Positions 19,787 through 61,361 of a DNA stretch of 64,000 bases are shown here, piece by piece. The stretch spans positions 1 to 64,000 of IMG/VR virus record IMGVR_UViG_2850796239_000011, one strand, 5' to 3'. The notes beneath the pieces were generated by a model. It did no database searches. It saw only the letters and a list, made by a program, of their open reading frames with translations, and was not told where the DNA came from. This stretch comes from a virus. Lineage: Duplodnaviria > Heunggongvirae > Uroviricota > Caudoviricetes. Made by a program: the position numbers and the translations under genes. Within the stretch, counting starts at the first letter, position 1. Each line of letters begins with the position of its first letter.

Positions 19787-21123
19787 TTATTCTTCGGACT
19801 GGCCGTCGGTGTGCTGCGGCTCCTGTCGTTTCGTTGCGACACTGCTGCCTCCTTTATCACTGGCCGGATCGGTATCAAATATCAGACCCAGCTTGCGGTT
19901 TTCATCAATTTCAGCCTTGCGCCGACGTTTGACATCATCCGGATTACGCCCACCTGCTCGCACCCAGTCTGATTCTGTCGCCGCTCCACCGCGAATCTGG
20001 ATTTTCCAGGCCTCAGCCTCCTTAACCGGATCAATCCACGGCATGACCGGACCGGAATATGTTGCGTTACACAACGGGTACCGTTGTAATTGCGCGCCGC
20101 ACTGGAAAAACTCATACGACTGCCTGCGGCCACCGCACGCAGCTGCCCGTTACGAAAAGTTTCAAGGTTAGGATTGGGCCGATCAGATTTGACCATGCCA
20201 ATATCTTCCCCCTTGCGCAAATCGTCATAAATAATGCCAGGGGTGATATGCAGTTCCCGGTCATTATCTTTATTTATCGTGGCGTCTTCATAATCCTGCC
20301 CATCTCCTTTACGGATATACAGCCCCAGAGCCGCAGCCGCTGTCAGCTCAGCATCTTCATATTCCTTAAGCGCACTGATCCGCATCAGCACACCTGACAA
20401 CATGGATGTACCACGCGTCTGATGCAGACGACGGGTAAATTTCAGATGCACCATATTTTCGGCAACGATCTCTTTGGTATCACTCAGCCGCCCGGTAGTC
20501 GGATGATTTTTATAAACCAGGTATTTTTTCGGTCTGCCCCAGTCATCCAGAAAAACACCCTGATTCAACCCCACAGATTCATCACTGAGCATGGGCACAA
20601 AATCCGGCTCCATTGCCTCGATCCAGAAAGGCACGCCAGCAGTCCGCACCAGCCCGCCGCCGGCACCACGAACCAGCTGGGCAAACACTTCACCATCACG
20701 TAACCAGGTACGCAGCAGCAGACGCTCGAGCATGGGGCGCGTATACTGCCCGGTCACATCCGGACTGACAGACCATTCCACCCACAAGCGACGGATAATC
20801 ATTGCCAGCTCTGTGGCTATATCACCGTTCTTCAGTAATGGCTGGGGTTCGGCAACGATCCCTTTTGCACCAATCACCCGTTCCTCAAGTTTGTCGAAAA
20901 CACCGATTACCAGATCATGATTGATGTCCAGAAAACGAGCCTGCTCCCGCAGGGAAACTGCACCGTACTTACTGAGCTGGTCGGCAGAACGATTTTCCCG
21001 CCGGGCTTTATGTGTACGAGTAGGCTTCACTGCCTCATAGGCACGAATTAATGCCCTTGAGCGCAATCTCGCAGCTTTCCAGCCAGGTGAAAAAACACCA
21101 ATCACATCATCAAGAATTGCCAT
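19787..21123 (-). pseudogene. Portal protein, apparently frameshifted near 20050-20080
   Basis: 413-aa ORF has an Arg/Cys-rich junk-like tail; a protein-like acidic C-terminus ('PWIDPVKEAEAWKIQIRGG...') continues in the -1 frame (95-aa ORF). Confidence 0.65.
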
Positions 21124-29031: not shown

Positions 29032-29107
29032 TGGTGGCCCTTGCTGGATTTGAACCAGCGACCTGGCGATTATGAGTCGCTCGCTCTCACCACTGAGCTA
29101 AAGGGCC
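29032..29107 (-). tRNA. tRNA with CAU anticodon, ileX-like (tRNA-Ile2)
   Basis: 76-nt cloverleaf: 7-bp acceptor stem, 'TAGCTCAGTGG' D-arm, 'CTCATAA' anticodon loop, 'GGTTCAAATCC' T-arm, CCA end; close to E. coli ileX. Confidence 0.9.
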
Positions 29108-35016: not shown

Positions 35017-35304
35017 ATGCCATCCAGACTGTATAAACAGTTCATCCGTCATCTCGGTGAATCTGAATACATACGAATCCGCATATGGGAAGTGGAGCCT
35101 GCTGTATTGGGTAGCCAGCACAACTACAAATACAGCATGGCTTATGTCGTTGATGGCATGTGTGTGATGCGTTACGACAACGAACGGGGTAAAGGCGATC
35201 ACAAACACATTGGTAGTCAGGAAGTCAGCACCAGCTTTGTCACCATTGAACAACTGCTCGCTGATTTTCTGGCTGACGTTGAATCCATCCGCAGAGGTAT
35301 CTGA
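35017..35304 (+). CDS. Putative toxin-like protein (DUF6516/TumE-like motif)
   Basis: 95 aa; RBS GAGGA 8 nt upstream; motif 'MRYDNERGKGDHKHIG'; stop 1 nt before the next start. Confidence 0.55.
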   Translation: MPSRLYKQFIRHLGESEYIRIRIWEVEPAVLGSQHNYKYSMAYVVDGMCVMRYDNERGKGDHKHIGSQEVSTSFVTIEQLLADFLADVESIRRGI

Positions 35305-35305
35305 C

Positions 35306-35665
35306 ATGAGAACCGTAACAATCCGAATCGAGTCAATGGATAATTTCACGGCTGATGTGCTGTCTGCGTTCCAGGAAGCAGCTACCGGAGCAAAAGCAAC
35401 CAGAGAAAACGTTATTTCATTTCCTGACTGGCAAATGATGCATAAGGTACTGACACCAAAACGCATGGACATTCTGATGGCAATGACTGGTGCCGGAGAA
35501 ATGTCCATCCGAAAAATTGCAGCCCTGGTTGGACGTGATGTAAAAAGCGTGCATACTGACGTGACCGCACTCATCAGCAACGGTTTACTGGAAAAAAGCG
35601 AGCGCGGAACGTCATTCCCGTATGACGACATCCACTTTGATTTTACGCTGGGCAAGGCGGCGTAA
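35306..35665 (+). CDS. Putative winged-HTH DNA-binding partner (antitoxin-like)
   Basis: 119 aa from ATG at 35306; MarR-like wHTH segment 'LTPKRMDILMAMTGAGEMSIRKIAALVGRDVKSVHTDVTALISNGLLEKSE'. Confidence 0.55.
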   Translation: MRTVTIRIESMDNFTADVLSAFQEAATGAKATRENVISFPDWQMMHKVLTPKRMDILMAMTGAGEMSIRKIAALVGRDVKSVHTDVTALISNGLLEKSERGTSFPYDDIHFDFTLGKAA

Positions 35666-35882: not shown

Positions 35883-36596
35883 TCACACCTGCCAGCCAGT
35901 AGCCTGAAACAGGCCCATTCTCGGGTGATACCAGCGGGTACCACGCTGAACGGCACCACACATCATGTGATGAAACGCCTTCAGAAACGGTTCCACAGCA
36001 ACAATTTCACGACGTGCCAGTAATCCATCTGGCGTCAAAAATTCATGAGTGTCTGTCGGGATGTTGTATGCATTTACAAGCGTGCGACATTTCGCATCTG
36101 ACATACCGGTTTTTGCTTTCAGCTGGCGATATCCGGCATAGCCCTCACGAATGGTACCCTTTTTGATTTGCTCAACTGTTTCGGCAACATGGCTGACTTT
36201 TTCTTCCACCTGAGTGATCCGTTTCTGCTGGCGAACGGCTTCAAGAGCCATCGCGGCAACCATTTCGATTTCGCTCATTGGCTTACGGATCTGTTCTTCC
36301 AGTTCGCGCCAGCGATCTACCAGGCGAGCAGTGAATTCAGGACAGAGCTGTGCGACGACAATGATACTGTCGCGCTTACCTTGTTCTCCTTCAAACAGGT
36401 AATGCTCATATTGAACTTTAAAACCTAAGTTATTGATTCTTTCGGAAACCTCAATTTGAGGAGACCGGACAACGCCACCTTTGGCTAATGTTTCAATAGT
36501 GCGTTTCACATTGTCATGACGCTTACCCACCAGTTCTGCGATCTCAACGCTGGTCATGGATGCTTTGTCGTTAAAAATTGCGGTGTTCACTGCCAT
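35883..36596 (-). CDS. Rha-family phage regulatory protein
   Basis: N-terminus 'MAVNTAIF...MTSVEIAELVGKRHDNVKRTIETL'; ORF trimmed to this Met. Confidence 0.75.
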   Translation of the reverse strand: MAVNTAIFNDKASMTSVEIAELVGKRHDNVKRTIETLAKGGVVRSPQIEVSERINNLGFKVQYEHYLFEGEQGKRDSIIVVAQLCPEFTARLVDRWRELEEQIRKPMSEIEMVAAMALEAVRQQKRITQVEEKVSHVAETVEQIKKGTIREGYAGYRQLKAKTGMSDAKCRTLVNAYNIPTDTHEFLTPDGLLARREIVAVEPFLKAFHHMMCGAVQRGTRWYHPRMGLFQATGWQV

Positions 36597-36709
36597 CTCC
36601 TTACGGATAAATTCTTTTAAGATTCCGCACATTCGTACTTGTTGGTGCCGAACCTTCCTTCAGTTATCCTTTTGATCCCTATAAACAAAAGAACCAAAGG
36701 AGGTTCGAC

Positions 36710-37003
36710 ATGAAAGTTCAGGCCGTTGGTTTATTCTGGTTTCGCGATGCTATTCAGTATCATGAGTTCAAAAAGATTTTTACTGATGCAGATGTGCTCT
36801 CCGACAGTTACACCTAGTGGAAACACGACGCTGAAAAATTGATTAAGCGTGTCGAAAGAAGCGGGCAACGAGTTATTAAAGTTGAAGCGGATACAACCGA
36901 GTTCATCACCTGGTGTACAAGCGAAGGCATTGGACTCAATGCCAAAGGTAGAATGCAGTTCGCATCCTTTAAGGCTTACCAACAACTTCTCAGCGAACGC
37001 TAA
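36710..37003 (+). pseudogene. Small ORF with strong SD interrupted by an in-frame TAG at codon 36
   Basis: AAGGAGG 6 nt before ATG at 36710; 35 codons, TAG at 36815-36817, then 61 more in-frame codons to TAA at 37001; Lys/Glu-rich protein-like composition. Confidence 0.35.
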
Positions 37004-37073
37004 TGTGATTGGGGCAATCGAAATGGTTGCCCCATCGTATTTAATAGTTATTTTTTCGCTCATATCACCACCA

Positions 37074-37283
37074 TCACTTCTCATCCTCTGTGTGCGCTAA
37101 GCTTGGATGTGTATATGGAATGTTCGGATCCAGATGGCAGAGAATGGCAACATCCTCCGGAACGCCCCGCGTTTTCCACTTTCCAACTCCCTGACTACCA
37201 CGAGGCTTTCCTTTCTTTGGAAACCTGCGGCCAATAGCGGCATTGGTTTTAAATTGAGTTTTTAATATTTCATAAAGGGTCAT
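37074..37283 (-). CDS. Cro-like early regulator (putative)
   Basis: 69-aa ORF divergent from cI with ~110-bp operator-like intergenic region; assignment by position. Confidence 0.45.
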   Translation of the reverse strand: MTLYEILKTQFKTNAAIGRRFPKKGKPRGSQGVGKWKTRGVPEDVAILCHLDPNIPYTHPSLAHTEDEK

Positions 37284-37394: not shown

Positions 37395-38051
37395 ATGAAA
37401 TCTTTAGGTGAACGCCTAATCAACGCACGACAAAAAGCTGGGTTAACGCAAGATGCGTTGGCTAAAAAAGCAGGGGTCACCAGAGTTGCAATCAGTAAAG
37501 CCGAGCAAGGCCTTACAAAAAGTTTCAACGGTGACACCCTTTTTAAAGTCGCAGCTGCACTGCAGTGTTCACCGCAGTGGCTTCAGAACGGAGATGAGAA
37601 AGGTAAGCATTGGGAAAATAATGTTAAGAGTTGCCCCCAGAGGGACACAGCACACTCTTACCCTGTAATTAACTGGGTTCAGGCAGGATTATTCACAACT
37701 GCAGGTGATGACTACAACATGTATGATCAGGATAACTGGAGGCATTCTGTAAAATACGCTGGTGAGAGGGGGTTCTGGCTGGAAGTGCACGGAGACTCAA
37801 TGACTTCGCCTATAGGAATAACATTTCCTGAAGGAATGTCGATCCTTGTCAACCCAGATAAAGAAGTTTTTTCAGGGTGTTACGTCATTGCCAGAAAAAA
37901 ATCCACCAATGAAGCAACATTCAAAAAATATATTTCTGAAATGGGAAAGGCGTTTCTAAAGCCCCTTAATCCACAATACCCAATCATAGAAATGGACAAT
38001 GATTGCGAAATAGTAGGCGTTGTGGTTGATGCCAGATGGGATATTTTCTGA
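37395..38051 (+). CDS. cI: CI-like repressor (HTH-XRE + S24 LexA-like peptidase domain)
   Basis: N-terminal HTH ('LTQDALAKKAGVTRVAISKAEQG'), C-terminal S24-like domain with 'HGDSM'. Confidence 0.85.
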   Translation: MKSLGERLINARQKAGLTQDALAKKAGVTRVAISKAEQGLTKSFNGDTLFKVAAALQCSPQWLQNGDEKGKHWENNVKSCPQRDTAHSYPVINWVQAGLFTTAGDDYNMYDQDNWRHSVKYAGERGFWLEVHGDSMTSPIGITFPEGMSILVNPDKEVFSGCYVIARKKSTNEATFKKYISEMGKAFLKPLNPQYPIIEMDNDCEIVGVVVDARWDIF

Positions 38052-39706: not shown

Positions 39707-39793
39707 TGGCTAATTTATCCCCTGTATCTGTTGTGCACGAAAAAGTGCAGTGAGGTGTACTGGCAATAGCGGACACTACCATTTGTTCTTTTT

Positions 39794-40612
39794 TTAAGCA
39801 GCCATCTGATGATATTTTTCCCTGAAGGCTGCCGGGGAGATATTCCCCAGACGAGAGTGACGACGCTGACGATTGTAGAAAATCTCAATGTATTCCCGTA
39901 TTACTGAGATGGCTTCATCCCGGTTATTAAAACGATAGTGGCTCAGGCTCTCATTTTTCAGCGTTCCCCAGAAGCTTTCCATCGGAGCGTTGTCGTAACA
40001 GTTACCTTTACGCGACATTGATGTTTTCAGACCAGACTGCTCCTGTATGACCCGGTAATCGTATGCGCAGTACTGTGAACCTCGATCAGAGTGGTGGATT
40101 AGCCCGGCAGGTGGGCGCTGGCTCCTGAGCGCCATAAACAGGGCTTTACCTGTCAGCTCTTTTGTCATGCGCTCTCCCATGGCGTAGCCGACAATTTCGC
40201 ACGTATAAACATCTTTGATGCCAGCGAGGTACAACCATCCCTCCTGTGTGGCAACATACGTCAGGTCCGCCACCCAGACCTGATTTGGTGCTGTAGGAGC
40301 GAACGTCTGGTTCAGCAGATTTGGCGCAACTGGCAGATTGTGGTTCGGGTTCGTAGTCGCTCTGAACTTGCGTTTCTGCTTACAGCGTAGCCTTAGCTCC
40401 TTACGAAGACGTGCCAGTCGGTCACGACCAACGATGATGCCATTCTCTGCCAGCTCCGTCTGGAGCCGCCGGGTTCCATATGTTTCGCGAGTGCGGATAT
40501 GTGCCACCTTAATCTCCAGTTTTAGCCGCTCATCACTTTGTTTTCTGTCTGAGGGTTCATGCTGTACCCAGTTGTAATAACCGCTCCTGGATACACCAAA
40601 TACCTGACACAT
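39794..40612 (-). CDS. IS600 transposase OrfB (DDE integrase domain)
   Basis: 272 aa IS3-family OrfB. Confidence 0.9.
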   Translation of the reverse strand: MCQVFGVSRSGYYNWVQHEPSDRKQSDERLKLEIKVAHIRTRETYGTRRLQTELAENGIIVGRDRLARLRKELRLRCKQKRKFRATTNPNHNLPVAPNLLNQTFAPTAPNQVWVADLTYVATQEGWLYLAGIKDVYTCEIVGYAMGERMTKELTGKALFMALRSQRPPAGLIHHSDRGSQYCAYDYRVIQEQSGLKTSMSRKGNCYDNAPMESFWGTLKNESLSHYRFNNRDEAISVIREYIEIFYNRQRRHSRLGNISPAAFREKYHQMAA

Positions 40613-40647
40613 CGCTTCAATGGGAAATTGTTGTCGCCATTGTTCGA

Positions 40648-40950
40648 TTAACGCGTATTTTTCAGCGACTCCTGTGCAAAATACGCTGTTGCTTTTTTTA
40701 ATATATCTCGCTCAAGGCGAGCTTCATTTAACGCCTTACGCAGTTGCAGAATTTCAGATTCCAGTTCAGCCACCGTGCGGGAACCAGGAGTACCGAGCCC
40801 TTTTCTGGCGGCGGTAACCCATTGTCCTAAAGTGCCTTCAGGAAGGGATAATCGGGAAGCGCCTTCACTGATCGAAAGTTGATTTTCAAGAACCGTTCTG
40901 ACAGCTTCGGCTTTGAACTCTTTAGAGTAACGTTGGGTTTTTCTGCTCAT
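40648..40950 (-). CDS. IS600 OrfA (HTH)
   Basis: 100 aa 'MSRKTQRYSKEFKAEAVRTVLENQLSISEGASRLSLPEG'. Confidence 0.9.
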   Translation of the reverse strand: MSRKTQRYSKEFKAEAVRTVLENQLSISEGASRLSLPEGTLGQWVTAARKGLGTPGSRTVAELESEILQLRKALNEARLERDILKKATAYFAQESLKNTR

Positions 40951-41159
40951 TATTAGCTCCTTCTGATGCCATTCTATTTCAGGAAGGAGTGTCCGTTAAA
41001 CTCAGGCTACCTCACAGATCGTTATGACAATTGAAAATGGCCAGGTAACAGATGTCTGCAAAGTCCGCGATGGAGAGCTGATTGCCAGCATGGATACATT
41101 CATACGGCTGGCAGAAAGAGCGGGGTATCAGATAACAGCACCTGCTCAGGAGGAAACCA

Positions 41160-42017: not shown

Positions 42018-42242
42018 AAAAAACAATTGCGCTTGTTTTCGCGGTCAGTCTGGCTGTCTTCGGACTTGTAGGTTGCGATCGCGTTGAACCAGGTAATGTG
42101 GGTATCAAAGTCAACAAACTGGGCGACGACAAAGGTGTCGGTGAAGTGGTCGGTGTTGGTCGCTACTGGACTGGCTGGAATACTGAAGTGAACCGCCCCG
42201 GGAATCCTGGAGACTAAACTTCCTGAGAAAGAGGTAAACAGG

Positions 42243-42568
42243 ATGACTAAAAATACTCGTTTTTCCCCGAAGTCCGTCAGAGGGCGATTCGTATGGTTCT
42301 GGAAAGTCAGGGCGAATATGACTCACAGTGGGCGGCAATTTGTTCCATTGCCCCAAAGATTGGCTGTACACCGGAGACTCTGCGTGTCCGGGTACGCCAG
42401 CATGAGCGGGATACCGGAGGCGGTGATGGCGGGCTCACCACCGCTGAACGTCAGCGTCTGAAAGAGCTGGAACGTGAAAATCGTGAACTGCGCCGCAGTA
42501 ACGATATCCTTCGCCAGGCTTCCGCTTATTTTGCGAAGGCGGAGTTCGACCGCCTCTGGAAAAAATAA
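42243..42568 (+). pseudogene. IS629 orfA with 1-nt deletion
   Basis: Starts 'MTKNTRFSP' then shifts frame; the in-frame remainder is the 42293-42568 ORF; 'CCGAAG' where 'CCGGAAG' is expected. Confidence 0.7.
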
Positions 42569-43455
42569 TGCCACTGCTGGATAAGCTGCGTGAGCAGTAC
42601 GGGGTCGGACCGCTATGCAGCGAACTGCATATTGCCCCGTCAACGTATTACCACTGTCAGCAACAGCGACATCATCCGGATAAACGCAGTGCCCGTGCGC
42701 AGCGCGATGAGTGGCTGAAGAAAGAGATACAGCGCGTATACGATGAAAATCACAAGGTATACGGTGTGCGTAAAGTCTGGCGTCAGTTGTTACGGGAAGG
42801 TATCAGAGTGGCCAGATGCACTGTGGCACGTCTCATGGCGGTTATGGGACTTGCCGGTGTTCTCCGGGGTAAAAAGGTCCGTACGACCATCAGCCGGAAA
42901 GCCGTTGCCGCAGGCGACCGCGTAAACCGTCAGTTCGTGGCAGAACGACCTGACCAGCTGTGGGTGGCTGATTTTACTTACGTCAGCACATGGCAGGGCT
43001 TCGTCTATGTGGCGTTCATCATTGATGTGTTTGCCGGATACATCGTGGGGTGGCGGGTCTCATCGTCCATGGACACGACATTCGTGCTGGATGCACTGGA
43101 GCAGGCGTTATGGGCCCGTCGACCGTCCGGCACGGTCCATCACAGTGATAAAGGTTCTCAGTATGTATCGCTGGGCTACACACAGCGGCTTAAGGAAGCC
43201 GGATTACTGGCATCAACAGGAAGTACAGGCGACTCGTATGACAACGCGATGGCGGAGAGCATCAATGGTCTTTACAAAGCGGAGGTAATACACCGTAAGA
43301 GCTGGAAAAACCGTGCAGAAGTGGAACTGGCCACACTCACGTGGGTGGACTGGTATAACAATCGACGATTGCTGGAAAGGCTGGGCCATACTCCTCCGGC
43401 AGAAGCAGAAAAAGCTTATTATGCTTCCATCGGAAACGATGATCTGGCAGCCTGA
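42568..43455 (+). CDS. IS629 transposase OrfB
   Basis: 295 aa IS3-family DDE transposase. Confidence 0.85.
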   Translation: MPLLDKLREQYGVGPLCSELHIAPSTYYHCQQQRHHPDKRSARAQRDEWLKKEIQRVYDENHKVYGVRKVWRQLLREGIRVARCTVARLMAVMGLAGVLRGKKVRTTISRKAVAAGDRVNRQFVAERPDQLWVADFTYVSTWQGFVYVAFIIDVFAGYIVGWRVSSSMDTTFVLDALEQALWARRPSGTVHHSDKGSQYVSLGYTQRLKEAGLLASTGSTGDSYDNAMAESINGLYKAEVIHRKSWKNRAEVELATLTWVDWYNNRRLLERLGHTPPAEAEKAYYASIGNDDLAA

Positions 43456-44191
43456 GTTCACAGATAAAACACTCTCCAGGAAAACCGGGGCGGTTCAGAA
43501 GTTTACATTTTCCCGACCTTCAAGCAAATGAAGACCTACGATGAACCGTTCAGTTTCCAGATGAGTGACGGCACAACCATCGGCTATCACATCGGCGTGG
43601 CCTACAAAGTTGATCCATCCAAAGTTACCACAGTCTTTCAGACTTACCGCAAAGGCGTGGATGACATTACCGACACTGACCTGCGCCAGAAAATTGCCGA
43701 CGCACTCAATCGGCTGGCCAGCAAAATGACCACTGACAAATTTATCGACGGCGGCAAGTCTGAACTACTGGATGCCGCACTTAAAGACATTCAGGAAGAG
43801 ATGACACCCATCGGCATTCAGGTAATGAGCCTCTCTTATGTAGGTAAACCGGAATACCCTCCAACCGTTATCGACAGCATTAACGCCAAAGTCACGGCAA
43901 ACCAGAAAACCCTGCAGCGCGAACAGGAAGTCAAGCAACGTGAAGCGGAGGCCAACATGCTACGTGCGGAAGCTGCCGGACAGGCTGATGCCATTCGAAC
44001 AAAAGCCCAGGCAGAAGCCGATGCCATTCGTTTACGCGGCGAAGCTCTACGCCAGAACCCAGGCGTCATGGAGCTGGAAGCCATCAACAAGTGGAACGGT
44101 ACACTGCCGCAATACATGACCAGTGGTGCCAATACACCATTTATCCAGATTAAATAACTTATATGCCCGGCAGGCCGCCGGGCTAAGGGAA

Positions 44192-44518: not shown

Positions 44519-44581
44519 TGAGGTAGCCTGAGTTTAACGGACACTCCTTCCTGAAATAGAATGGCATCAGAAGGAGCTAAT

Positions 44582-44884
44582 AATGAGCAGAAAAACCCAA
44601 CGTTACTCTAAAGAGTTCAAAGCCGAAGCTGTCAGAACGGTTCTTGAAAATTAACTTTCGATCAGTGAAGGCGCTTCCCGATTATCCCTTCCTGAAGGCA
44701 CTTTAGGACAATGGGTTACCGCCGCCAGAAAAGGGCTCGGTACTCCTGGTTCCCGCACGGTGGCTGAACTGGAATCTGAAATTCTGCAACTGCGTAAGGC
44801 GTTAAATGAAGCTCGCCTTGAGCGAGATATATTAAAAAAAGCAACAGCGTATTTTGCACAGGAGTCGCTGAAAAATACGCGTTA
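44582..44884 (+). pseudogene. IS600 orfA with premature stop (Gln24 to stop)
   Basis: Identical to copy 1 orfA except CAA to TAA at 44651-44653. Confidence 0.7.
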
Positions 44885-44920
44885 ATCGAACAATGGCGAC
44901 AACAATTTCCCATTGAAGCG

Positions 44921-45739
44921 ATGTGTCAGGTATTTGGTGTATCCAGGAGCGGTTATTACAACTGGGTACAGCATGAACCCTCAGACAGAAAACAAAGTGA
45001 TGAGCGGCTAAAACTGGAGATTAAGGTGGCACATATCCGCACTCGCGAAACATATGGAACCCGGCGGCTCCAGACGGAGCTGGCAGAGAATGGCATCATC
45101 GTTGGTCGTGACCGACTGGCACGTCTTCGTAAGGAGCTAAGGCTACGCTGTAAGCAGAAACGCAAGTTCAGAGCGACTACGAACTCGAACCACAATCTGC
45201 CAGTTGCGCCAAATCTGCTGAACCAGACGTTCGCTCCTACAGCACCAAATCAGGTCTGGGTGGCGGACCTGACGTATGTTGCCACACAGGAGGGATGGTT
45301 GTACCTCGCTGGCATCAAAGATGTTTATACGTGCGAAATTGTCGGCTACGCCATGGGAGAGCGCATGACAAAAGAGCTGACAGGTAAAGCCCTGTTTATG
45401 GCGCTCAGGAGCCAGCGCCCACCTGCCGGGCTAATCCACCACTCTGATCGAGGTTCACAGTACTGCGCATACGATTACCGGGTCATACAGGAGCAGTTTG
45501 GTCTGAAAACATCAATGTCGCGTAAAGGTAACTGTTACGACAACGCTCCGATGGAAAGCTTCTGGGGAACGCTGAAAAATGAGAGCCTGAGCCACTATCG
45601 TTTTAATAACCGGGATGAAGCCATCTCAGTAATACGGGAATACATTGAGATTTTCTACAATCGTCAGCGTCGTCACTCTCGTCTGGGGAATATCTCCCCG
45701 GCAGCCTTCAGGGAAAAATATCATCAGATGGCTGCTTAA
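44921..45739 (+). CDS. IS600 transposase OrfB
   Basis: 272 aa, two substitutions relative to copy 1. Confidence 0.9.
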   Translation: MCQVFGVSRSGYYNWVQHEPSDRKQSDERLKLEIKVAHIRTRETYGTRRLQTELAENGIIVGRDRLARLRKELRLRCKQKRKFRATTNSNHNLPVAPNLLNQTFAPTAPNQVWVADLTYVATQEGWLYLAGIKDVYTCEIVGYAMGERMTKELTGKALFMALRSQRPPAGLIHHSDRGSQYCAYDYRVIQEQFGLKTSMSRKGNCYDNAPMESFWGTLKNESLSHYRFNNRDEAISVIREYIEIFYNRQRRHSRLGNISPAAFREKYHQMAA

Positions 45740-45867
45740 AAAAAGAACAAATGGTAGTGTCCGCTATTGCCAGTACACCTCACTTATCTCAGCAGAAATT
45801 ATCAGTATTGAACCCGCTACAAACATACGGCTCTGAAGTTCTCACTATTCAGAGAGCAGGAGAAAAA

Positions 45868-46560: not shown

Positions 46561-47874
46561 ATGGATAAAGTCAAATATCCAACAGGCGTCGAAAACCACG
46601 GTGGCACATTACGCATCTGGTTTAATTTTAAAGGTAAACGTGTCAGGGAAAATCTTGGTGTCCCTGACACTGCCAAGAACAGGAAGATCGCCGGAGAGCT
46701 GCGGACATCTGTATGTTTTGCCATTCGTACAGGAAATTTTGATTATGCTGCGCAGTTCCCTGACTCTCCTAACCTCAAGGCTTTTGGGGTAAATAAAAAA
46801 GAAATTACGGTGAAAGAACTTGAAGAAAAATGGCTGGATCTGAAACGAATGGAAATCTCTGCAAATGCATTCAATCGCTATGAATCCATTGCAAGGATGA
46901 TGGTTCCGAAGATTGGTGGCAACCGACTGGTATCAGCAGTGACCAAAGAGGAATTGCTGTATATCAGGAAAGATTTGCTGACCGGATACCAAAATCCAAC
47001 AAAAGGTAAAGCTCCAGTAAAAGGACGAAGCGTTGTCACAGTAAATTATTACATGACAACAATCGCTGGAATGTTTCAGTTTGCTGCAGATCACGGTTAC
47101 ATAGAAGCAAATCCCTTCGAGGGAATTAAGCCTCTTAAAAGAGCCAGGGCAGAACCAGATCCGCTAACTCGTGACGAATTTATTCGCCTGATAGATGCTT
47201 GCCGGCATCAGCAGACAAAAAACCTGTGGTCATTGGCTGTGTACACAGGAATGCGTCATGGTGAACTGGTCTCCCTGGCCTGGGAAGATATCGATCTGAA
47301 AGCAGGAACAATTACTATCAGGCGCAATTATACGAAACTCGGTGAGTTCACTCTACCTAAAACTGAAGCAAGTACAAACAGGGTTGTGCATCTTATCCAG
47401 CCCGCTATCAGTGTCCTGAAAAATCAGGCTGAAATGACAAGACTGGGTAAGCAGCACAACATCAAGGTTCAACTACGTGAATATGGACGTTCAGTAAATC
47501 ATGAATGTACTTTCGTATTTAACCCCCAGGTGGTTAGAAAAAGCAAACAGGTAGGTTTTATCTACAAGGTAGATTCCATTGGCGACTCATGGGAAACAGC
47601 CATTAAACGTGCAGGCATCAGGCATCGAAAGGCATACCAGTCACGACACACTTATGCGTGCTGGTCATTATCTGCCGGAGCAAATCCAAGCTTCATTGCC
47701 AGCCAGATGGGGCATGCAAGTGCCCAGATGGTGTTCAATGTATACGGAGCATGGATGACTGACAGCAATGCAGAACAGATCGCAATGCTGAATCAGAAGC
47801 TGGCAGATTATGTCCCAATGATGTCCCATGGTCACCAAAGTGACACAAGAGGCTTATTAAAATCAGTGAGTTAG
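46561..47874 (+). CDS. int: Tyrosine integrase
   Basis: 437 aa; catalytic region with conserved Arg...His-x-x-Arg...Tyr pattern ('HTYACW...AQMVFNVYGAW'). Confidence 0.9.
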   Translation: MDKVKYPTGVENHGGTLRIWFNFKGKRVRENLGVPDTAKNRKIAGELRTSVCFAIRTGNFDYAAQFPDSPNLKAFGVNKKEITVKELEEKWLDLKRMEISANAFNRYESIARMMVPKIGGNRLVSAVTKEELLYIRKDLLTGYQNPTKGKAPVKGRSVVTVNYYMTTIAGMFQFAADHGYIEANPFEGIKPLKRARAEPDPLTRDEFIRLIDACRHQQTKNLWSLAVYTGMRHGELVSLAWEDIDLKAGTITIRRNYTKLGEFTLPKTEASTNRVVHLIQPAISVLKNQAEMTRLGKQHNIKVQLREYGRSVNHECTFVFNPQVVRKSKQVGFIYKVDSIGDSWETAIKRAGIRHRKAYQSRHTYACWSLSAGANPSFIASQMGHASAQMVFNVYGAWMTDSNAEQIAMLNQKLADYVPMMSHGHQSDTRGLLKSVS

Positions 47875-47977: not shown

Positions 47978-49210
47978 CTAGAGTTTCACACTGATATCCG
48001 ACACATCCAGAACCGGAATCTCATCTATCCCGAAAGTGACAGCCGTTGTCCATGACGAACCGTCACGGCTCACAGTAAGGCCCAGAATATCAATATGTTC
48101 CGGATCGGTTTTGTAAATGCCGGCATAGTAGCGCCCGGCAGAGACAACAGAGGCAACCCTTGCCCGCAGACCACCATCTGTACCATTAAATGCGTCCAGC
48201 ACGGATTGCTGTACCTGTCGGGTAATATCTGAAGGCAGGTAGTCACTTTTTTTCAGCGTCACACTGACATGCAGACTGACGGGTTTGAGTGTCTGCCAGC
48301 TGATCACGTATTCAGGATACGGCGGATCGTACTCCTTATCTGCAACAGTGAACGTTGTGTTGCCATTCATATCAATACCCGGCGGAGCCTTACGCCAGAT
48401 GGCCGCCGCGATATCTGCCGGGCTGCCGCCGTACACGCCAACATAAAGCGAACCGGGTGTTAATGGATACTGACTGACTCCGGCTTTTTGTTCTGTTTTT
48501 TTCGGATTATGGGTGACGTAAACATCCACCACGTTTTCTACCGTGGAGAGTATTTCACCCCGGATGGCTTCCAGAATATTCCGGGCATTACGGGCAACTG
48601 AATTACGTCGGCGGTTTTCAAAGTCCGCACGGGTTTCCTCATCGCTGCCCGGCACACCGGCACTGGCGTTAGTGACACCTGACCAGCCAGGTATTGCCTT
48701 ATAAATTTTATTCAGCGTCCCCACAGGACAGCCGACGGGGCCGGTGGACAAATTCAGAAATACCGCATCAACCTGCCCTGATGCGCCGATAGTGACGTCT
48801 GACTGACTGACATACTTATAACCGGCCTCATCCTGCGCCATACTGCCCGCCGGGATCAGCGTGCCAACCAGCCCGGTACAGGTCGCTGTTACTGTCGTAC
48901 CTGTGGCCCCGCGGCGCTCCAGGAAATAAATCCTGCCTATTGCATCCTGAAAGCGACCACTGGAAAAGTCAGGGTTGATCTGGTTAACGATATACAGCAA
49001 CTGGTCGTTTTTATCCGCAATAATGGCGCTTTCGCTGGATGCAAGTTGTCCCTGCGGACTGCTCAGACTGGTACTCATGGCCCCGCCCAGCGCCGCCGAA
49101 AAATCAGCAAGCCTGCCGCTCAGAATATCCGCTTCATCCGGCACATTCAGCCCGCGATCCGAAATCTGTACAGCGGGCACTGCGGTAGAAAAAGATTTAT
49201 TTTCACTCAT
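47978..49210 (-). CDS. Baseplate J-like protein (myovirus-type prophage remnant)
   Basis: 410-aa ORF following GP46-like and spike genes; last gene before the lambdoid int end. Confidence 0.65.
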   Translation of the reverse strand: MSENKSFSTAVPAVQISDRGLNVPDEADILSGRLADFSAALGGAMSTSLSSPQGQLASSESAIIADKNDQLLYIVNQINPDFSSGRFQDAIGRIYFLERRGATGTTVTATCTGLVGTLIPAGSMAQDEAGYKYVSQSDVTIGASGQVDAVFLNLSTGPVGCPVGTLNKIYKAIPGWSGVTNASAGVPGSDEETRADFENRRRNSVARNARNILEAIRGEILSTVENVVDVYVTHNPKKTEQKAGVSQYPLTPGSLYVGVYGGSPADIAAAIWRKAPPGIDMNGNTTFTVADKEYDPPYPEYVISWQTLKPVSLHVSVTLKKSDYLPSDITRQVQQSVLDAFNGTDGGLRARVASVVSAGRYYAGIYKTDPEHIDILGLTVSRDGSSWTTAVTFGIDEIPVLDVSDISVKL

Positions 49211-49563
49211 AGCAATACCGTAAAAATGTCATTATTGGTATCTGTAATACGCAGCACACCTGTTACTGTCCGGGTTTGATCAGCTGTGACCTGGCAGACA
49301 GCGGCGCTCACGGTCGGCAGTTTAAGTGCTTCCTGTTGCAGAGTGGCATTCACCAGTTGTGTGCCGGGCCAGTGTCCGAGGATGCGTGGCCAGTAAGGTA
49401 TGCCAGCCGTTGAGTCGTACCAGCACTCCCCCAGAAAAGTACTGCACGCACACGCCACATCCTGAGCTACCGCATGGGGATTATCAGTAATGGCAAGATT
49501 TCCGGTATCATCAAGCAGGATATCCCATGTCCCGGTGTCAAGAAGAAGTGATCGTGACTGCAT
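49207..49563 (-). CDS. GP46/gpW-like baseplate protein
   Basis: 118 aa, coupled between spike and J-like genes. Confidence 0.55.
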   Translation of the reverse strand: MQSRSLLLDTGTWDILLDDTGNLAITDNPHAVAQDVACACSTFLGECWYDSTAGIPYWPRILGHWPGTQLVNATLQQEALKLPTVSAAVCQVTADQTRTVTGVLRITDTNNDIFTVLL

Positions 49564-49575
49564 GTTTTCTCCTGT

Positions 49576-50253
49576 TTACCGGGGTCCCTGCGTGGTTGAG
49601 CCGCCGGACTCAACGCCGCCGTGAACGTGGTTTCCAAAATCAATACCCCCGATGTTCGAACCGCCGGAAAGCCTGGACTGCCCGGTAACGTCAAGCCCCT
49701 TACTGACGGCGGTATCGCCGTTCAGCGCAATTTGTGGTGAATTAACGGTGAAGCTTTTCGGCGCATTAATCACACCCTCAGGCGCGGATATCTCCACTTT
49801 CCAGGGAGATACAATCCGTATCTGGTTGTCATCAAATACCACAAACTGGACGGGATCACCGTTGAGCACGCCACCCAGCCAGATGGCATCAGCATAATTA
49901 TGGGTACGCTTTGATCCCGGCATCGCAGCCTGACGCGTGGCTTTTACCGCACTGATATCCCGATCGCAGATGGCAAGAAAACCGATATCCCCCACATGTG
50001 GCGGCATAATCACCGCATTACCGCCCCCCTGTAGTCGCCATACGGGAATGTTATAAATCACCTCATGTTCAACCGGGGAACCGTCTGCTGCAACGCCCAT
50101 TACCATCGGTCGGGCCTCAATAAATCCCTCTTCCACGGCTACCACCCGTCCCAGAGTGATAAACGCATGACGTCCGAGAAACTGCCGCAGCATAAAGTCC
50201 TGTGCATTGATTTCGCTGTTCACGTCTGTCGGGTTACTGAGTGGTTGTGCCAT
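49576..50253 (-). CDS. Baseplate spike / assembly protein V-like
   Basis: 225 aa; Gly-rich C-terminus ('NHVHGGVESGGSTTQGP'). Confidence 0.6.
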   Translation of the reverse strand: MAQPLSNPTDVNSEINAQDFMLRQFLGRHAFITLGRVVAVEEGFIEARPMVMGVAADGSPVEHEVIYNIPVWRLQGGGNAVIMPPHVGDIGFLAICDRDISAVKATRQAAMPGSKRTHNYADAIWLGGVLNGDPVQFVVFDDNQIRIVSPWKVEISAPEGVINAPKSFTVNSPQIALNGDTAVSKGLDVTGQSRLSGGSNIGGIDFGNHVHGGVESGGSTTQGPR

Positions 50254-51103
50254 TTTCTTCAGCCCTCATCATGGTACAGTTGGAACTCCACGGACCGCCC
50301 ACGGTTCGCGAAGTAATGGTGTGTATCACCCCTGTGATCGTATAATCGCCCGTCATATCAGGCAGTGACGATTCCAGATGCGCTGGCCTGCCAGTAAAGA
50401 GATCGGGGCAGAATATCGTGGTGGCGCTGAGTCCGGTCATGGTGTAAACCGGATAGCCAGTCAGTCCGTGATCCGGCGAAATCAGTACCGGCGGAATATT
50501 CCGGTTCTGCCCTTTCGGCCAGATGGTGACTTTCTCCACATTCCCCAGATCAATGTTAATATCGGCGGCTGAAGCGACATCCAGCATTTGTTGTACAACA
50601 TTACCGGAAAAATGCGGGTCAGACAGACTGCGGCTGACCCCCTGGTTTTCAAATCCAAGCCCGACAGTTGACGCCAGCGCACGGATAATATCTGCAACCG
50701 CAACATCGCCCTTTGCGCTGAAATCTGCCGCCGGCTGATTACGCAGATTAAAATGAATCTGTCCTGTCAGAATGAGCGGAATATCCGGCGCCTGGTTGTA
50801 GTCGGCGTATGCATCAGTAATATCACCTTCAAAAATAAGCCGCCCGTCGGCCCACAGCCGCATTTTATTTGCGGTACTCTGCTCCTGTCGCCACACACCG
50901 CGCCAGCTTAAATTCGTCATATGCGCCGGTGACATTCCCCAGATATACAGCGTGATTTGTGTACCAGCCACCCCTCCATATACGCCAATACTGGCAAAAC
51001 AGCTTGCGTCGGTAATGGTCAGCATATTGCCCTGGCCATTACCAAACGTTCGTCCGTCTGAAAGAGTGAACTCCACCGTTATTTTACGTTGTCTGTAGCT
51101 CAT
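50234..51103 (-). CDS. Tail/baseplate protein (hub-like, putative)
   Basis: 289-aa ORF in baseplate module. Confidence 0.45.
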
Positions 51104-51402
51104 ATCAGTTCCTCAGGTAACAGCCAGTAGAGCCGGTACCGGGATCCGAGCCCCCGCCAGTCAGGGTCACTATTCCCCTCCGTGTCGGTAAAAAACAGGT
51201 CCCCCTGAAACGGCAGGTATCCGTACCGGACAATCCGGTTATTATTCAGACACAGCACGCCATACAGGCACGGTTCACCATTAACAATGATATCGATATA
51301 CATCCCCGTAGTACGCTGATTCAGGCGAATGGTGCAGACCTGAGCGCCCAGTGTCACCGTAAACTGCTGGGCTTTAACGGGAGATAAAACAATTTCCAGC
51401 AT
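51100..51402 (-). CDS. Tail protein (putative)
   Basis: 100-aa coupled ORF. Confidence 0.4.
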
Positions 51403-52112
51403 CAGGTGATCCCCCTGTTCGTGGCGCTTCGTCTGTCAGCGTCTGACGGTTGTGTCACCGACGCCGTAACTGACTGCGTTTTAACCGATGCGGCCCCTTT
51501 TGCTTTATCGTTGTCCGTGGGAGACGACTTATCCGTACTTCCCACTGACACCTCTCCTGTATTCATTACGGTCTGAAATACCGCAGTAACCGTCAGTAAG
51601 GTCGGACCATTATTACTTCGCATTCGGTAGTCATATTTCACAAGGTCGCAGGATGTCCATGTCTTGTCCGGCGTCTCAATATCGTAGAGTCCTGCCGTGG
51701 TACGCATCCTTTCAAGCGTTTCCAGCACATTCGTCCGCGAGGTGGTGGAAAAATTTGTCAGGTTCGGGACGGATCCGGAAAAGGCCGTCCACCCCTCTAC
51801 AGTGAAAGTCACATGCAGTTCCGGCGATCTCTGGATTTTATTAAAGGTGGTATAAGCCCCCTGCTCCACGGGGACGGTGGAAACAGAAGCCTCCGCGCCC
51901 ACCTCAACGACAACAAAAGAATCCGGGGAGAAAGGTTTGCCACCCTTCTGATGGGCACCTGCCGGATCATTCCGTGCGTAATAAATACCGAATGACGGTG
52001 CCAGTACACTGTTAATGAGTCCCAGGACACCGCCGCCACGAACTGCACTCAGTACGTTACTTTCACTGAGCGAAAAGTTATTCAGGGAAATATTATCGAA
52101 AGAAAAACTCAT
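51402..52112 (-). CDS. Tail protein downstream of tape measure (putative)
   Basis: 236-aa ORF. Confidence 0.45.
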
Positions 52113-53599
52113 CCTGTTACCCCGCTGGAATAAACCGACACAAGCGCCGAATTCGTGATACGCCGACGTGCGTCATCGGTAATACCCTTCACATTGTCCG
52201 ACGTTGTGGTGACATTCAGTGTCCCGATATGCGTGGTTTCCGTTACGGTGGACTGCGATACAGGCGCAGGATGGCGCGACCGTATGGCCATTGCCGCACC
52301 CGGATAAGGCAGGTTCGCCAGCACCCGCGGAATATAGTTGCGGGTCTCCTCCGGAGCAGCAGCCAGTCCCTTACGCTGAACATTTCCCTCTCCCCAGTTA
52401 TATGCCGCCAGAGCCTTAGCCAGATCGCCATGAAAAAAACGTATCAGGCCACCAAGTTTTCTCGCGGCGGCATCAGCGGCTTTTTCGGGATCAAAGGCAT
52501 CGTTCCCCTCAGACCAAATTCACTGGCCGTCTTCGGCATGAACTGAAACAGTCCCATCGCACCAGCAGGTGAGACGGCAAACTGATTACCACGGGATTCG
52601 GTGATCGCAACGCTGCGCAGCAGTCCGGGCGGCAGGTTATATTTTTCCTCCAGTTGAGACAGTTTCGGTTGCAGCCAGCCTAACAGGGCTTCCCCGGTCT
52701 TCGTCGGTCGCTGGCGGTTTTGCATGGCATTACCGAGTTTTTCCTGCGTCGCACGCATACCCTGTAGCCAGGATTCACCGAAGGCTGCTTCCCTCCCGGT
52801 TGCCTGAGAAGCCTGAGTATCCAGCATGCCCTGCTGCCATACTGTGGGTGATTGTGCCCGGGTGATGTTGCCAGGCTTTTCTCCGGCATCCAGTTTTGTC
52901 TGATACGTCTCCATCTCTTTCTTATTGAAAAAGAAAGTCCCGTCTGAAGCCCAGAAAAAACCATGTGAATCCAGCCAGTCCTTATTTTCCCTGCCAACAA
53001 TGGATGTCAGTAATCCGTCAACAACCGGGTAAAGCGCCGTTATCGCAAAAAGAAGGCCTCCGGGGCCACTGAGGGCTTTTGTCAGCCCCCCGCACCCATG
53101 ACGCCACTTTCAGCCCGATCAGCGTAATAATGGCATTCTGCCAGCCCCCCAGTTCTCCGGCAGCCTTATTCGCCAGGGAGGCCACTGACTCAACGTCATT
53201 CAGAAATGTGGTGATAAACCTGTTCACTTCCTCCGGATGTTGCTGCATCCAGTCACCGAGTGTCTCCAGCCAGTGGCTGAGCTTCAGCGCGTACGGCATC
53301 AACGCGGTGCTAATCGTCATCCCGATGCCGGACCAGGTCTGATCGAGCTCAACAAGCTCTTTTCGTAGCTTACGGGCCAGCGCTATACGCCCCGGCGTAA
53401 CCTGCGAACGGGAAGTAAATTCGTCCACATCTTTCAGCGCATGACCGGAGCCAAGAAACTGCTGTCCGGCATAACTGAAGCCCAGCGCGTTGCCGTAGGC
53501 AGTTTGTTCGGACTTTGTCAGTCGCGGAAAAATAACCGCCAGCTTGCGCATGATGGCTTCAGTGCTGTCAGTATTTAAATCAACACTAGGCTGTGTCCC

Positions 53600-54115
53600 T
53601 TAATTACGTAAGCGTTGATAAAAGAGTCGGATGCAGCCCAGTTTCACCATCGCCAGGTAATTTCTCGCCGTTTTGTCGTAACGCGTGGCGATGCGGCGAT
53701 ATTCTTTCAGCCGCCCAAAGCACCGTTCAACGACATTACGATTGCGGTACGCATCACGATCAAGCTGTGCACGTCCATCCGATGCCATTTTCTCATTTGA
53801 CTTTCGGGGGATTACTGCCTTTATACCGTTATTTTTCAGCTCGTTGCGCAATGCGCGCCCTGAATACGCTTTATCAGCCAGTACCGCATGTCCACGGCGT
53901 TTCATGCTGCCGTTCTGACGCTGAACGCCAATCCCGTCCAGAAGTCGTTGCGCGAACTGGCTTTCATGAGCTTGTCCGGGGCTTAGCACGATATTTAACG
54001 GGAGGCCACTTCCGTCTGTTGCCAGATGGATTTTGGTGCCAAAACCGCCGCGAGAGCGACCCAGCCCATTATCTCCGTCGATATCGGGATGTTTTTTTGA
54101 GCACCGGCGGCACAT
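53600..54115 (-). CDS. IS5-family transposase OrfB (DDE domain), -1 frame relative to OrfA
   Basis: 171-aa ORF 'GLGRSRGGFGTKIHLATDGSGLP'; overlaps orfA across 'CAAAAAAAC' (54092-54098). Confidence 0.7.
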   Translation of the reverse strand: MCRRCSKKHPDIDGDNGLGRSRGGFGTKIHLATDGSGLPLNIVLSPGQAHESQFAQRLLDGIGVQRQNGSMKRRGHAVLADKAYSGRALRNELKNNGIKAVIPRKSNEKMASDGRAQLDRDAYRNRNVVERCFGRLKEYRRIATRYDKTARNYLAMVKLGCIRLFYQRLRN

Positions 54116-54444
54116 TTCAGCGCCCGGATATTACTGCCATCCAGCGCGGTGGCAGACCAGTCAATAAAGCCGTTTGCATCAAGTAGCGAAAGCAACCTGT
54201 TGAAAATAATATTAATCACGCCTGACTTTGACCATCGGTTAAAGCGGTTATAAACAGTTTTCCATGACCCATATCGTTCGGGTAAATCGCGCCATGGTGC
54301 ACCGGAACATAACACCCAGAACATGCCATTGATGATTTTACGGTGCTCAGCCCATGGGCGTCCGGCCCGTGGTGTGGCGGGTTCAGGAGGTAACAGGGGC
54401 TTGATGATGGTCCATGCCTCATCGGGAAGGTCGTAGCGAGCCAT
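53995..54444 (-). CDS. IS5-family transposase OrfA (N-terminal domain)
   Basis: 149 aa 'MARYDLPDEAWTIIKPLLPP...GAPWRDLPERYGSWKTVYNRFNRW'. Confidence 0.7.
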   Translation of the reverse strand: MARYDLPDEAWTIIKPLLPPEPATPRAGRPWAEHRKIINGMFWVLCSGAPWRDLPERYGSWKTVYNRFNRWSKSGVINIIFNRLLSLLDANGFIDWSATALDGSNIRALKCAAGAQKNIPISTEIMGWVALAAVLAPKSIWQQTEVASR

Positions 54445-55031
54445 AGTTCAATATGTTGTGTAAACAGACAGTTACTATAGCTCAGATGATTAAGGGACAC
54501 AGCCTAATGCCCGCCCTGGCTGCAACCTGAAACAAATCCTGTAACACAGGATCAAAGGACCTTCCGGCTCTGAAGGCCGCTTTTGCATTTGCAAGCCGGG
54601 AAAATGCCCCAGACATTTCCCCTTCATCAACATTATTTGCCCGCGCAGCCCGTAACCATCCGTCCAGATTTCTGGCCTTCATGCCAAAAGCATCAGATTC
54701 CACGGACAGACGGTTCAGATCACGGGCAAAACCTGTTACCAGGTTCTTCAGCCCCCCCAGCGTCAGACTGACACCCGCAAGAGCCAGAATCTCGCTACGG
54801 ATCCCTGAAAAAAAACGGGACGCCCGTTTCCCGGCATCTTCCATTCGACGGGCCGTTTTATCAGCATCTTTTCCGGTTTTTTCCAGTGATTCACTGGTTT
54901 TCTTCTGTCCCTGACTGAATGTGTCAGCGACACCTTCCATCACCGTCGTGAGCCGGTTAAGGGCAGCATGTACTGCCTGTTCCCCGGCAGTAAAGTCCCT
55001 GTCATCAATCCCGAGGGACAGAACAAGCTCA

Positions 55032-55273
55032 TCAAGTACCTGCGCCATTTCTGTTCTCCTGTATCACCTGTTCGTTATGGGCATCCACATGAATTATTTC
55101 CAGCAGATCCCATAAGTCCTGCACACCAAGGACAGAATCCAGTTCAGCTTTTGAAGCCTTACCGGAGGAGATAACGGTCGCAATGGTACGGGGAACATTA
55201 ACGTAATCCACCACCCCGAACGGTCTGTCGGGGTCGAGATAACGCGGGGGGATATCTAGCTGACGACGGTAGC
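55032..55273 (-). CDS. -1 frameshift extension of the tail assembly chaperone (GT-like)
   Basis: Heptamer T_TTT_TTC at 55274-55280 (minus strand) near the 3' end of the 134-aa ORF; -1 frame open from there to the stop at 55032. Confidence 0.5.
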
Positions 55274-55660
55274 GAAAAAATCCACATGCAGCTTAAAGAC
55301 CTCCGCACGCAGATTAAGACGGGTAATGATTTCTTCAATATCCTCTTCAACAAGCGGTCTCCGGATGCTGCGTTTTTTCGGATCGGGAACAAACTGCACA
55401 CAGTCCATCATTTCATCCATCAACGGACGCGCCTCATCAGGCGGAATTTTCGATAATGCTTTCAGCCCTTCAAGGGCAAGCGCAGCCATCCCCAGACTAC
55501 GAACATCATCCGGTAACTCCACGCCACCACGCCCCATTGCCATAATGGCACGCATCGCCCACCATTCCGCCTGTAAGGCAGACATTTCGGTAAGATGAAA
55601 TACCTTGCCCTTATCCCGTCCCTGACCTTCAATAGTGATAAATTTCTCTTTACGGGCCAT
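55256..55660 (-). CDS. Tail assembly chaperone (G-like)
   Basis: 134-aa ORF between tube and tape measure. Confidence 0.55.
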   Translation of the reverse strand: MARKEKFITIEGQGRDKGKVFHLTEMSALQAEWWAMRAIMAMGRGGVELPDDVRSLGMAALALEGLKALSKIPPDEARPLMDEMMDCVQFVPDPKKRSIRRPLVEEDIEEIITRLNLRAEVFKLHVDFFATVVS

Positions 55661-56106
55661 CAGTTAAAAACCTCCGGAGTAATGGTTTCCCACTCAATAA
55701 CCGCCTGCCCTGGCTGCAACGTACGAGCTGCATCAGGCAGCGCTTTCCATTGTTTGAGTACGCCATTCACGCAGGTATATTTACGGCCAATCGCCGGAAG
55801 CAGGACGACAGCGTTACAACGGAATACAGCCCGACTGGCCCGGGATGTGGTTGACCAGGTATCAAAAATATCCCGGCTGGGGGAATCCGGCATGATATGA
55901 AACGTCTGGATAATGTTGCTGTACACAAATCCCGCGGACAGTTTACCGTCAATACCGCGGGCAGTTTCCGCCAGTACCAGTGGATCGGTGCCATAAACGT
56001 TATCTGTTGCAAATCCCTGAAGTCGTACGCCGGAGGGATACAGATTATTCACTGTCAGCGTGATAATGGCATCCGCCGCAGTGATGGTGTTGTTGTTACC
56101 CGACAT
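55660..56106 (-). CDS. Tail tube protein (putative)
   Basis: 148-aa ORF directly downstream of the sheath gene. Confidence 0.6.
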   Translation of the reverse strand: MSGNNNTITAADAIITLTVNNLYPSGVRLQGFATDNVYGTDPLVLAETARGIDGKLSAGFVYSNIIQTFHIMPDSPSRDIFDTWSTTSRASRAVFRCNAVVLLPAIGRKYTCVNGVLKQWKALPDAARTLQPGQAVIEWETITPEVFN

Positions 56107-57591
56107 TTACTGGACCTCCGTGGATGCAATAACAAGTTTCTGGATACTACCGCCGTCACAGTACCAGAGCGTACAGGACGGACTGCTACGGGTTGCCCGC
56201 AAAGAGGGAAGCATATCGCCGATATACAGGTAATAGCCGGTGGCAAACAACGTTGAAGAAACATCTGCCCCCACAACATTGTTAATCTGTTTCTTCTGCG
56301 CCTCCGTCAGTGTCACCCCTTCACGGATCCCTCCCCAGCGTTTGTACTGCTGGATAACGTCACTCATTGACGCTGCAACCAGCGCCCGCCCTTCATTGTT
56401 GTAGGGGATCGTCTGGTTTGACTTGAATAACGCGATCACCGCCCCCTGCAAACTGGCATTCAGCCAGATTTGCCCGCAGAAACTGTCCAGCCATTTAAAA
56501 TCACCGGTAATAGTGCCATCCGCCCAGTAATCTTCCACCACACTGTTTTCCGCATATTTTCCGTAGAAATTGTAACCTGCGGCGATCAGCGCATCATAAT
56601 CGCTGCCACTGGTAACATCAGCGGCCAGCCCCTCATACTCGCGGAACTTGAATGATACACGCCCCTCTGGTCGGACAAAATCAAGGCACGCTGCATACCC
56701 CAGTACCGCTGCAGCCCGGTTACCATCAGTCGCGAAAACAGGTACAACAGAGCTGTAGTTATTGACAGCAATTATCTGGTAAGCGATGTGTTTAGTACTG
56801 CCTTTTACTCTGGCGTTGCCGCTGGTTGTCCATGCCACATAAAAGTAACGCTTGCCCTGCCCGTTTGCCCATGCAGAAAACGCCAGGTGTTGCTCGTCAG
56901 TGACCTCAGATACCGTGGAAAAACCCGCCCATTGCTGGGAAGCGGCCTTAATGGCTGCCATTGTGTCAGGGACATCAGATACAGGCGCGCCCCGGGATAT
57001 CACCGCACCGGTGTTACTGGTCATCTTCAGGAGTTCTGCTGCCGATCCACTGCCGAACGTTATCGTGGTACTCCCGGGTTTCGCACCGGCGACAGTAATG
57101 ACAAAAGCATTCTGTGTGGTATCGAATACCACTGTAGCCACTGCTGCGGTCAGCGCTGTCTGTAGTGCCGTTGCAGCAGCGGCGAAGCTGGCGACACCGT
57201 TAAAATTCACTTCAATGCTGACGCTTTTCCCGTTAATACTCAGCATCAGCGTGCCGGAAAGTTTTTGTAGCTGTTCAACAGTCGCGCCCTTAAACGAACC
57301 GCTACGTAACCAGGCCGCCGATGGGGCAGGACTGAAACGGGAAAACAACAATTGCCCCGGCGTCCTGGTGGCATTTTTGAAGCCCTGGAAATAAAGCTGA
57401 GCGCGTGCGTACTCATCGGATAATGCACCAAAATACGCGGCCACATCATCCGGAGAGGAAAACGGAACCACAGTGCCGACCGGAAGTAACGGATTACTGG
57501 TCAACAGCAGGCCGTTAAGATCAACGGCATTACCCGCCACAGCCAGCACACCGGGATTTATCTGTACATCTTTACTGAGTGGAATTGGCAT
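56107..57591 (-). CDS. Tail sheath protein
   Basis: 494-aa ORF with sheath-like composition, upstream of the tube gene. Confidence 0.75.
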
Positions 57592-59496: not shown

Positions 59497-59501
59497 AGCG
59501 T

Positions 59502-61360: not shown

Positions 61361-61361
61361 A

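Follow-up and report, generated by a model that had tools for sequence, protein, structure and literature searches.

The 64-kb window (the whole stretch of DNA that was analysed, 64,000 nucleotides) includes the immunity region of a lambdoid prophage, in which a gene of the phrog_4753 family was located that shares its strand with the repressor (cI) and is flanked by the cro-position gene and the Rha gene. The features of this locus, with the evidence on which each was placed, are the following:

35883-36590, minus strand: Rha family regulator, intact, divergent from the pseudogene (Pfam Phage_pRha; annotation of the relatives)
36642-36658, plus strand: upstream block TTGGTGCCGAACCTTCC, kept in divergent relatives
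36697-36703, plus strand: Shine-Dalgarno AAGGAGG, 6 nt (TTCGAC) before the ATG at 36710 (read directly)
36710-37003, plus strand: probable pseudogene, a 97-codon phrog_4753 gene broken at codon 36 (translation; intact relatives)
36710-36814, plus strand: 35-residue N-terminal fragment, predicted to be the sole portion still translated (translation; structure model)
36815-36817, plus strand: premature amber TAG (alignment to three intact alleles)
36818-37000, plus strand: rest of the gene, 61 codons, predicted to be untranslated and without additional defects (equal to the nearest intact allele)
36731-37084, minus strand: 117-codon ORF in the codon-aligned antisense frame of the real gene, read here as a shadow ORF (dN/dS; no family)
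37010-37034, not assigned to a strand: G+C-rich hairpin GGGGCAATC...GGTTGCCCC between the convergent stops, terminator-like on the plus strand
37074-37283, minus strand: 69-aa cro-position gene, phrog_4749, convergent with the pseudogene (protein 100% identical to that of FDAARGOS_944)
37395-38051, plus strand: cI-type repressor, intact, on the same strand as the pseudogene (Pfam HTH_3 + Peptidase_S24)

The frame that opens at ATG 36710 was composed of 35 sense codons, TAG and 61 sense codons, and was closed by a TAA at 37001-37003; the Shine-Dalgarno, the start, the stop and the codon counts had been placed correctly, to the nucleotide, in the initial annotation of this DNA. The two parts had also been joined there into a 96-aa product, whose 96 residues are right, although the intact protein has 97 aa, since it includes the Glu that was replaced by the stop. 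When the region was aligned to FDAARGOS_943, the lone mismatch in 321 columns was a G to T change at 36815, which converts GAG (Glu36) into TAG. Relative to the nearest allele, the stop in the phrog_4753 gene was created by one derived substitution, and the 61 codons after the TAG carried no change with respect to the nearest intact allele, suggesting that the mutation is young. The first in-frame start past the TAG was TTG 36839, and no Shine-Dalgarno was visible in the sequence upstream of it.

A DNA search detected the region in 88 of the 5426 complete E. coli genomes, and an uninterrupted 294-nt CDS for a 97-aa hypothetical protein is annotated at the matching coordinates in FDAARGOS_944, FDAARGOS_943 and SE11. 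The gene is already known, as it is annotated intact in many genomes; the RefSeq proteins WP_000867908.1, WP_038341255.1 and WP_000867914.1 (97 aa, from Enterobacteriaceae prophages) represent the same gene, and the RefSeq homologues occupy the identical slot, between the Rha and cro-position genes. Once repaired, the protein of the window is that of the FDAARGOS_943 CDS (WP_000867908.1), the difference being the stop at codon 36 of the window, and with Glu36 restored its residues 1-97 matched positions 1-97 of the 97 in the phrog_4753 profile (E = 1e-48, 164 bits). Stop-free homologues were thus plentiful and annotated intact at the same locus, which agrees with the recent nonsense pseudogene that was one of the three options raised in the initial annotation; the search for such homologues proposed there found them in abundance for the plus-strand protein, so the refuting outcome named there, homologues of the minus-strand protein alone, did not occur. 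An exact-pattern scan of species-representative genomes found neither allele, the prophage being missing from the representatives, and a DNA search of cultured phages returned one 70-nt partial match that lay outside the gene, whereas a protein search of the same phages gave two distant matches, unannotated or hypothetical.

Selection on the plus frame was evaluated in a set of related loci (n = 36) comprising three E. coli genomes, one Phytobacter genome and 32 IMG/VR contigs. The frame was unbroken in 35 of them, and codon 36 was GAG, GAA or GAC (Glu/Asp) in all 36, with a stop at that codon in none; across the wider family, residue 36 was E, D, G or T. Divergent pairs showed plus-frame dN/dS values of 0.03-0.10 with 75-94% protein identity, the variable columns among 16 unique sequences were distributed 30/13/70 over plus-strand codon positions 1/2/3, and the GGAG-N7-ATG spacing was the same in six relatives with protein identities as low as 75%. 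The protein-like character that had been noticed in the frame is therefore far beyond chance, and these comparisons of sequence indicate that the plus-strand frame is a real gene under purifying selection.

A structure model built from 116 family members (pLDDT 94.2, pTM 0.84) predicted a beta-alpha-alpha-beta-alpha-alpha arrangement; a first model, for which 14 close sequences had been used, was poor (pLDDT 62) and was set aside. The intact gene specifies a protein of 97 residues, cytoplasmic and of alpha/beta type, that belongs to the uncharacterised family phrog_4753. According to the model, the 35-residue product would retain only strand 1 and helix 1, and it is devoid of W37, G52, W68, C69 and R81. 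These are five of the seven positions that are invariant, or nearly so, across the family, so the truncated protein is almost certainly non-functional.

The remainder of the prophage also showed signs of decay. Among the compared CDSs that are intact in FDAARGOS_944 (n = 49), the phrog_4753 gene alone carried a point nonsense mutation, all the other lesions being insertions or deletions. The insertions with respect to FDAARGOS_944 included two copies of IS600 in opposite orientations (39751-41004 and 44529-45782) and a 1.3-kb IS3-family element at 42190-43497 (transposase ORF at 42568-43455) that splits the SPFH gene; the three IS insertions disrupted a small ORF, a DUF5406 gene and the SPFH-domain gene. 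The lambda-family portal gene (19790-21123, minus strand) fell short of its FDAARGOS_944 counterpart by about 170 nt and was split over two frames, and with such a portal gene this copy of the prophage probably cannot form particles. A gene for an IpaH-type T3SS effector (LRR_TTSS + NEL E3 ligase; 1060-2823, plus strand) adjoins the tail-fibre end of the prophage, indicating that the chromosome is of the Shigella/EIEC type, and in the closest genome ipaHd adjoins the same prophage. A pseudogene beside IS elements, a broken portal gene and ipaH form the same pattern as in the decaying prophages of Shigella/EIEC, which are rich in IS elements and subject to reductive evolution. Independent breaks of the gene were also found elsewhere, in the form of an amber at codon 37, two frameshifts and three junctions to foreign DNA. 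We consider it highly probable (about 0.9) that the window copy represents a recent loss-of-function (nonsense) mutation of a genuine prophage accessory gene, in which the one-base G to T change at 36815 would have ended translation after 35 residues in a Shigella/EIEC-type chromosome.

The minus-strand ORF that covers the same DNA had been taken in the initial annotation as the antisense of a real gene, a view that was borne out: the ORF is present, belongs to no family and evolves neutrally. In 13 divergent pairs the antisense-frame dN/dS was 0.65-1.37, with 45-71% protein identity; its product had no match in Pfam or PHROG, and the exact product was absent among ~15 billion catalogued proteins. 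The ORF fully fits what is generally seen in shadow ORFs, which occupy the codon-aligned antisense frame, where stops come only from TTA, CTA and TCA. Since it is codon-aligned with the gene, both frames are open, and openness alone does not decide which strand is coding. The aligned antisense frame had 0-1 stops in every homologue examined, and the phrog_4753 family is poor in Leu and Ser. Resampling of synonymous codons with the prophage's own usage put the probability of such a low number of antisense stops at 0.24-0.47 per lineage, and in 17 of the 27 real genes of the window the aligned antisense frame stayed open for 95 codons or more. Selection holding the antisense frame open, for instance to shield the early transcript from Rho, was considered and discarded, because the resampling showed that this openness is expected. 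Judged by these patterns of substitution and codon alignment, the ORF at 36731-37084 is an ordinary shadow ORF and not a gene.

A related case was observed in Elizabethkingia phage EKP1 (OM284015.1, locus 3001-3396, our L043), where the plus-strand homologue (36% identity, frame ending at 3276) is unannotated and the deposited CDS 'hypothetical protein 21' (3064-3396, minus strand) corresponds to the antisense shadow ORF, which is probably a mis-annotation.

An antisense dN/dS of ~1 while the plus frame keeps 75-94% identity, the lack of a family match, a product that is off record, and an openness that is expected from resampling, with long antisense runs being common in the genes of the window, leave almost no probability that the minus-strand ORF is a true gene, or a second, overlapping gene that follows the cro-position gene in the rightward early operon, even though it is read in the same direction as the cro and Rha operon and starts with an ATG (37084) that overlaps the cro-position gene at its end, the antisense frame has only 0-1 stops in the homologues, and the depositors of EKP1 did annotate the antisense ORF. 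Slightly more credible, yet highly improbable, is an adaptive truncation, or an active product in the form of a 35-residue peptide or of a reinitiated C-terminal fragment. Such a reading could draw on the independent ambers in two neighbouring codons, that of the window (codon 36) and that of the viral contig IMGVR_UViG_2675903661_000021 (L027, locus 4001-4291; codon 37), where TGG (Trp37) was changed to TAG (ACC GAG TAG AAA), and on the repeated inactivation of the gene, which might mean that the intact protein is costly. The two nonsense alleles, 4 nt apart, are probably a matter of chance in a gene rich in codons one step from a stop, and the other disruptions were scattered, the gene being joined to foreign sequence after codon 29, 62 or 89 (P0172, P0015 and P0179, respectively) and frameshifted in P0017 and P0018. 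Neither the absence of a start codon with a Shine-Dalgarno past the stop, nor the rarity of the TAG allele, nor the loss of most of the conserved residues from the fragment is favourable to an active product.

The two other options of the initial annotation, a sequencing error and a gene read through by a suppressor tRNA, concern the stop itself, and both fared poorly. Under the former, the true base at 36815 would be G and the gene would be intact: only one base differs, every other allele examined has a sense codon 36, and the truncated product is on record from a single contig. The TAG allele was found in none of the complete E. coli genomes, in which the top matches over 71 nt each had one mismatch, and in none of the 32 IMG/VR viral contigs; the truncated 35-aa product was recorded on 1 contig (Logan assembly SRR3793777, a contig seen in two samples), the intact identical protein on 259 contigs and a near variant on at least 999. 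Nevertheless, the same T was reproduced in the SRR3793777 contig, which was identical to the window over 3276/3276 bases, TAG included, and the change is a substitution located outside any homopolymer. This contig stops 28 nt within the IS600 copy at 39751 and shares the IS600 site of the window, indicating that it comes from the same lineage, possibly the same strain, so the confirmation is not fully independent; as an assembly from public reads of this lineage it still argues against an assembly artefact, which is unlikely, and error in general was judged very improbable. Decoding of the amber, whether by a suppressor tRNA or by programmed or leaky read-through, with the full-length protein still being produced, was judged less probable than an error. 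The lack of conservation of the stop (0/36 relatives) excludes programmed read-through, and the sole tRNA of the 64-kb window has a CAT anticodon, no CUA-anticodon suppressor tRNA being found within the window, although the 61 codons past the stop are undamaged and residue 36, which tolerates E, D, G and T, would probably accept an inserted amino acid, so that any read-through would probably yield an active protein. In E. coli a U after UAG favours efficient termination, and the window reads TAG-T; to our knowledge, wild Shigella and E. coli are normally without amber suppressors, and the host presumably lacks amber suppression as well.

By itself, the loss of the phrog_4753 gene carries little weight, as one more point-mutation pseudogene in a decaying prophage. 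It is useful as a worked example of a real broken gene set against a longer antisense shadow ORF, since annotators could call the 117-codon shadow, as the EKP1 depositors did at the homologous locus. It also draws attention to a widespread family of ~100-aa proteins that lacks a domain model and keeps its synteny with immunity regions, and this uncharacterised family is the sole element of the case that might repay more work.

A profile search for the family against 1.84 billion representatives (50% identity clusters) retrieved 1118 clusters at E <= 0.001, 97 of them at E <= 1e-10. Its members were mostly stand-alone proteins of ~100 aa, and all of their source names were 'hypothetical'; two or three tandem copies of a ~95-residue domain were observed in P0021 (506 aa), P0026 (206 aa) and P0039 (319 aa). 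No significant match was obtained in Pfam, NCBIfam or PADLOC for the protein, for the 116 members or for the longer domain-containing proteins, and a sequence search of the PDB gave chance-level matches only. Members at 28-36% identity were found in the same slot beside cI/cro modules of temperate phages, which recurs on the strand of the repressor and in convergence with the cro-position gene. One such locus (L040) had the order Phage_CP76 regulator (minus), 77-aa gene (plus), family gene (plus), 98-aa gene (minus) and S24 repressor (plus), and a second one (L039) was arranged much like it; in phage EKP1 the family gene (plus) was followed by an HTH_3 cro-like gene (minus) and an HTH regulator (plus), and the member in L041 was located in a non-phage context.

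The family protein appears to resemble a putative HTH regulator of the Aca2-like type, the Shewanella oneidensis protein SO3848 (PDB 2ox6). An HTH of the Aca2/YdiL/SO3848 type was not detected, as neither the window protein nor the 116 members matched any HTH family, and the model of the family protein begins with a beta-strand, with no room predicted for an extra domain. A 'split SO3848', with the 77-79-aa upstream partners in L039 and L040 as the missing HTH, was rejected, given that these partners had no Pfam hit and were mutually unrelated. It is a speculative and rather doubtful proposal that the family, which looks structurally like an HTH-less copy of the SO3848 C-terminal domain, acts as an unrecognised modulator of the lysis-lysogeny switch or as an accessory factor expressed in lysogeny; if it were true, the repeated inactivation of the gene might reflect a fitness cost in domesticated prophages.

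The gene has a strong ribosome-binding site of its own and, when intact, would be expressed from the cI strand during lysogeny; the cI-type repressor itself is labelled LexA family protein in the relatives. The hairpin at 37010-37034 folds at -21 kcal/mol (z = -3.2), and all of its 10 stem pairs were kept in 8 sequences, with changes only to G-U, in spite of the divergence of its flanks. On the minus strand it sits at the position of lambda's nutR/tR1, but on that strand it has no U-run. The conserved block TTGGTGCCGAACCTTCC, upstream of the gene, reads almost as the reverse complement of the Shine-Dalgarno region. Its possible roles are those of a regulatory site or of a weak promoter -35, TTGGTG, followed 17 nt further on by TATCCT at 36665-36670; a scan for the sigma-70 consensus found no promoter for the plus-strand gene and did not report the block. 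A stem in which the block would sequester the Shine-Dalgarno was also considered and found no support from covariation, the covariation term being positive and many of its pairs being broken.

Three further elements of the window were recorded. A second phage-like block (47978-64000, minus strand), lying past the integrase (46561-47874), probably represents an unrelated prophage next to this one; its products include Baseplate_J, DUF3383 and DUF2213 proteins. A toxin-antitoxin pair of the TumE family (35017-35662, plus strand), made up of a 95-aa protein and a 119-aa regulator and 100% identical to that of FDAARGOS_944, constitutes a second plus-strand insert within the minus-strand early operon. 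The tRNA with the CAT anticodon (29032-29107, minus strand), which is not a suppressor, was found 144 nt downstream of the gene for the Q antiterminator; ARAGORN called it tRNA-Met, whereas the FDAARGOS_944 tRNA at the same distance from Q is annotated as tRNA-Ile (lysidine type).
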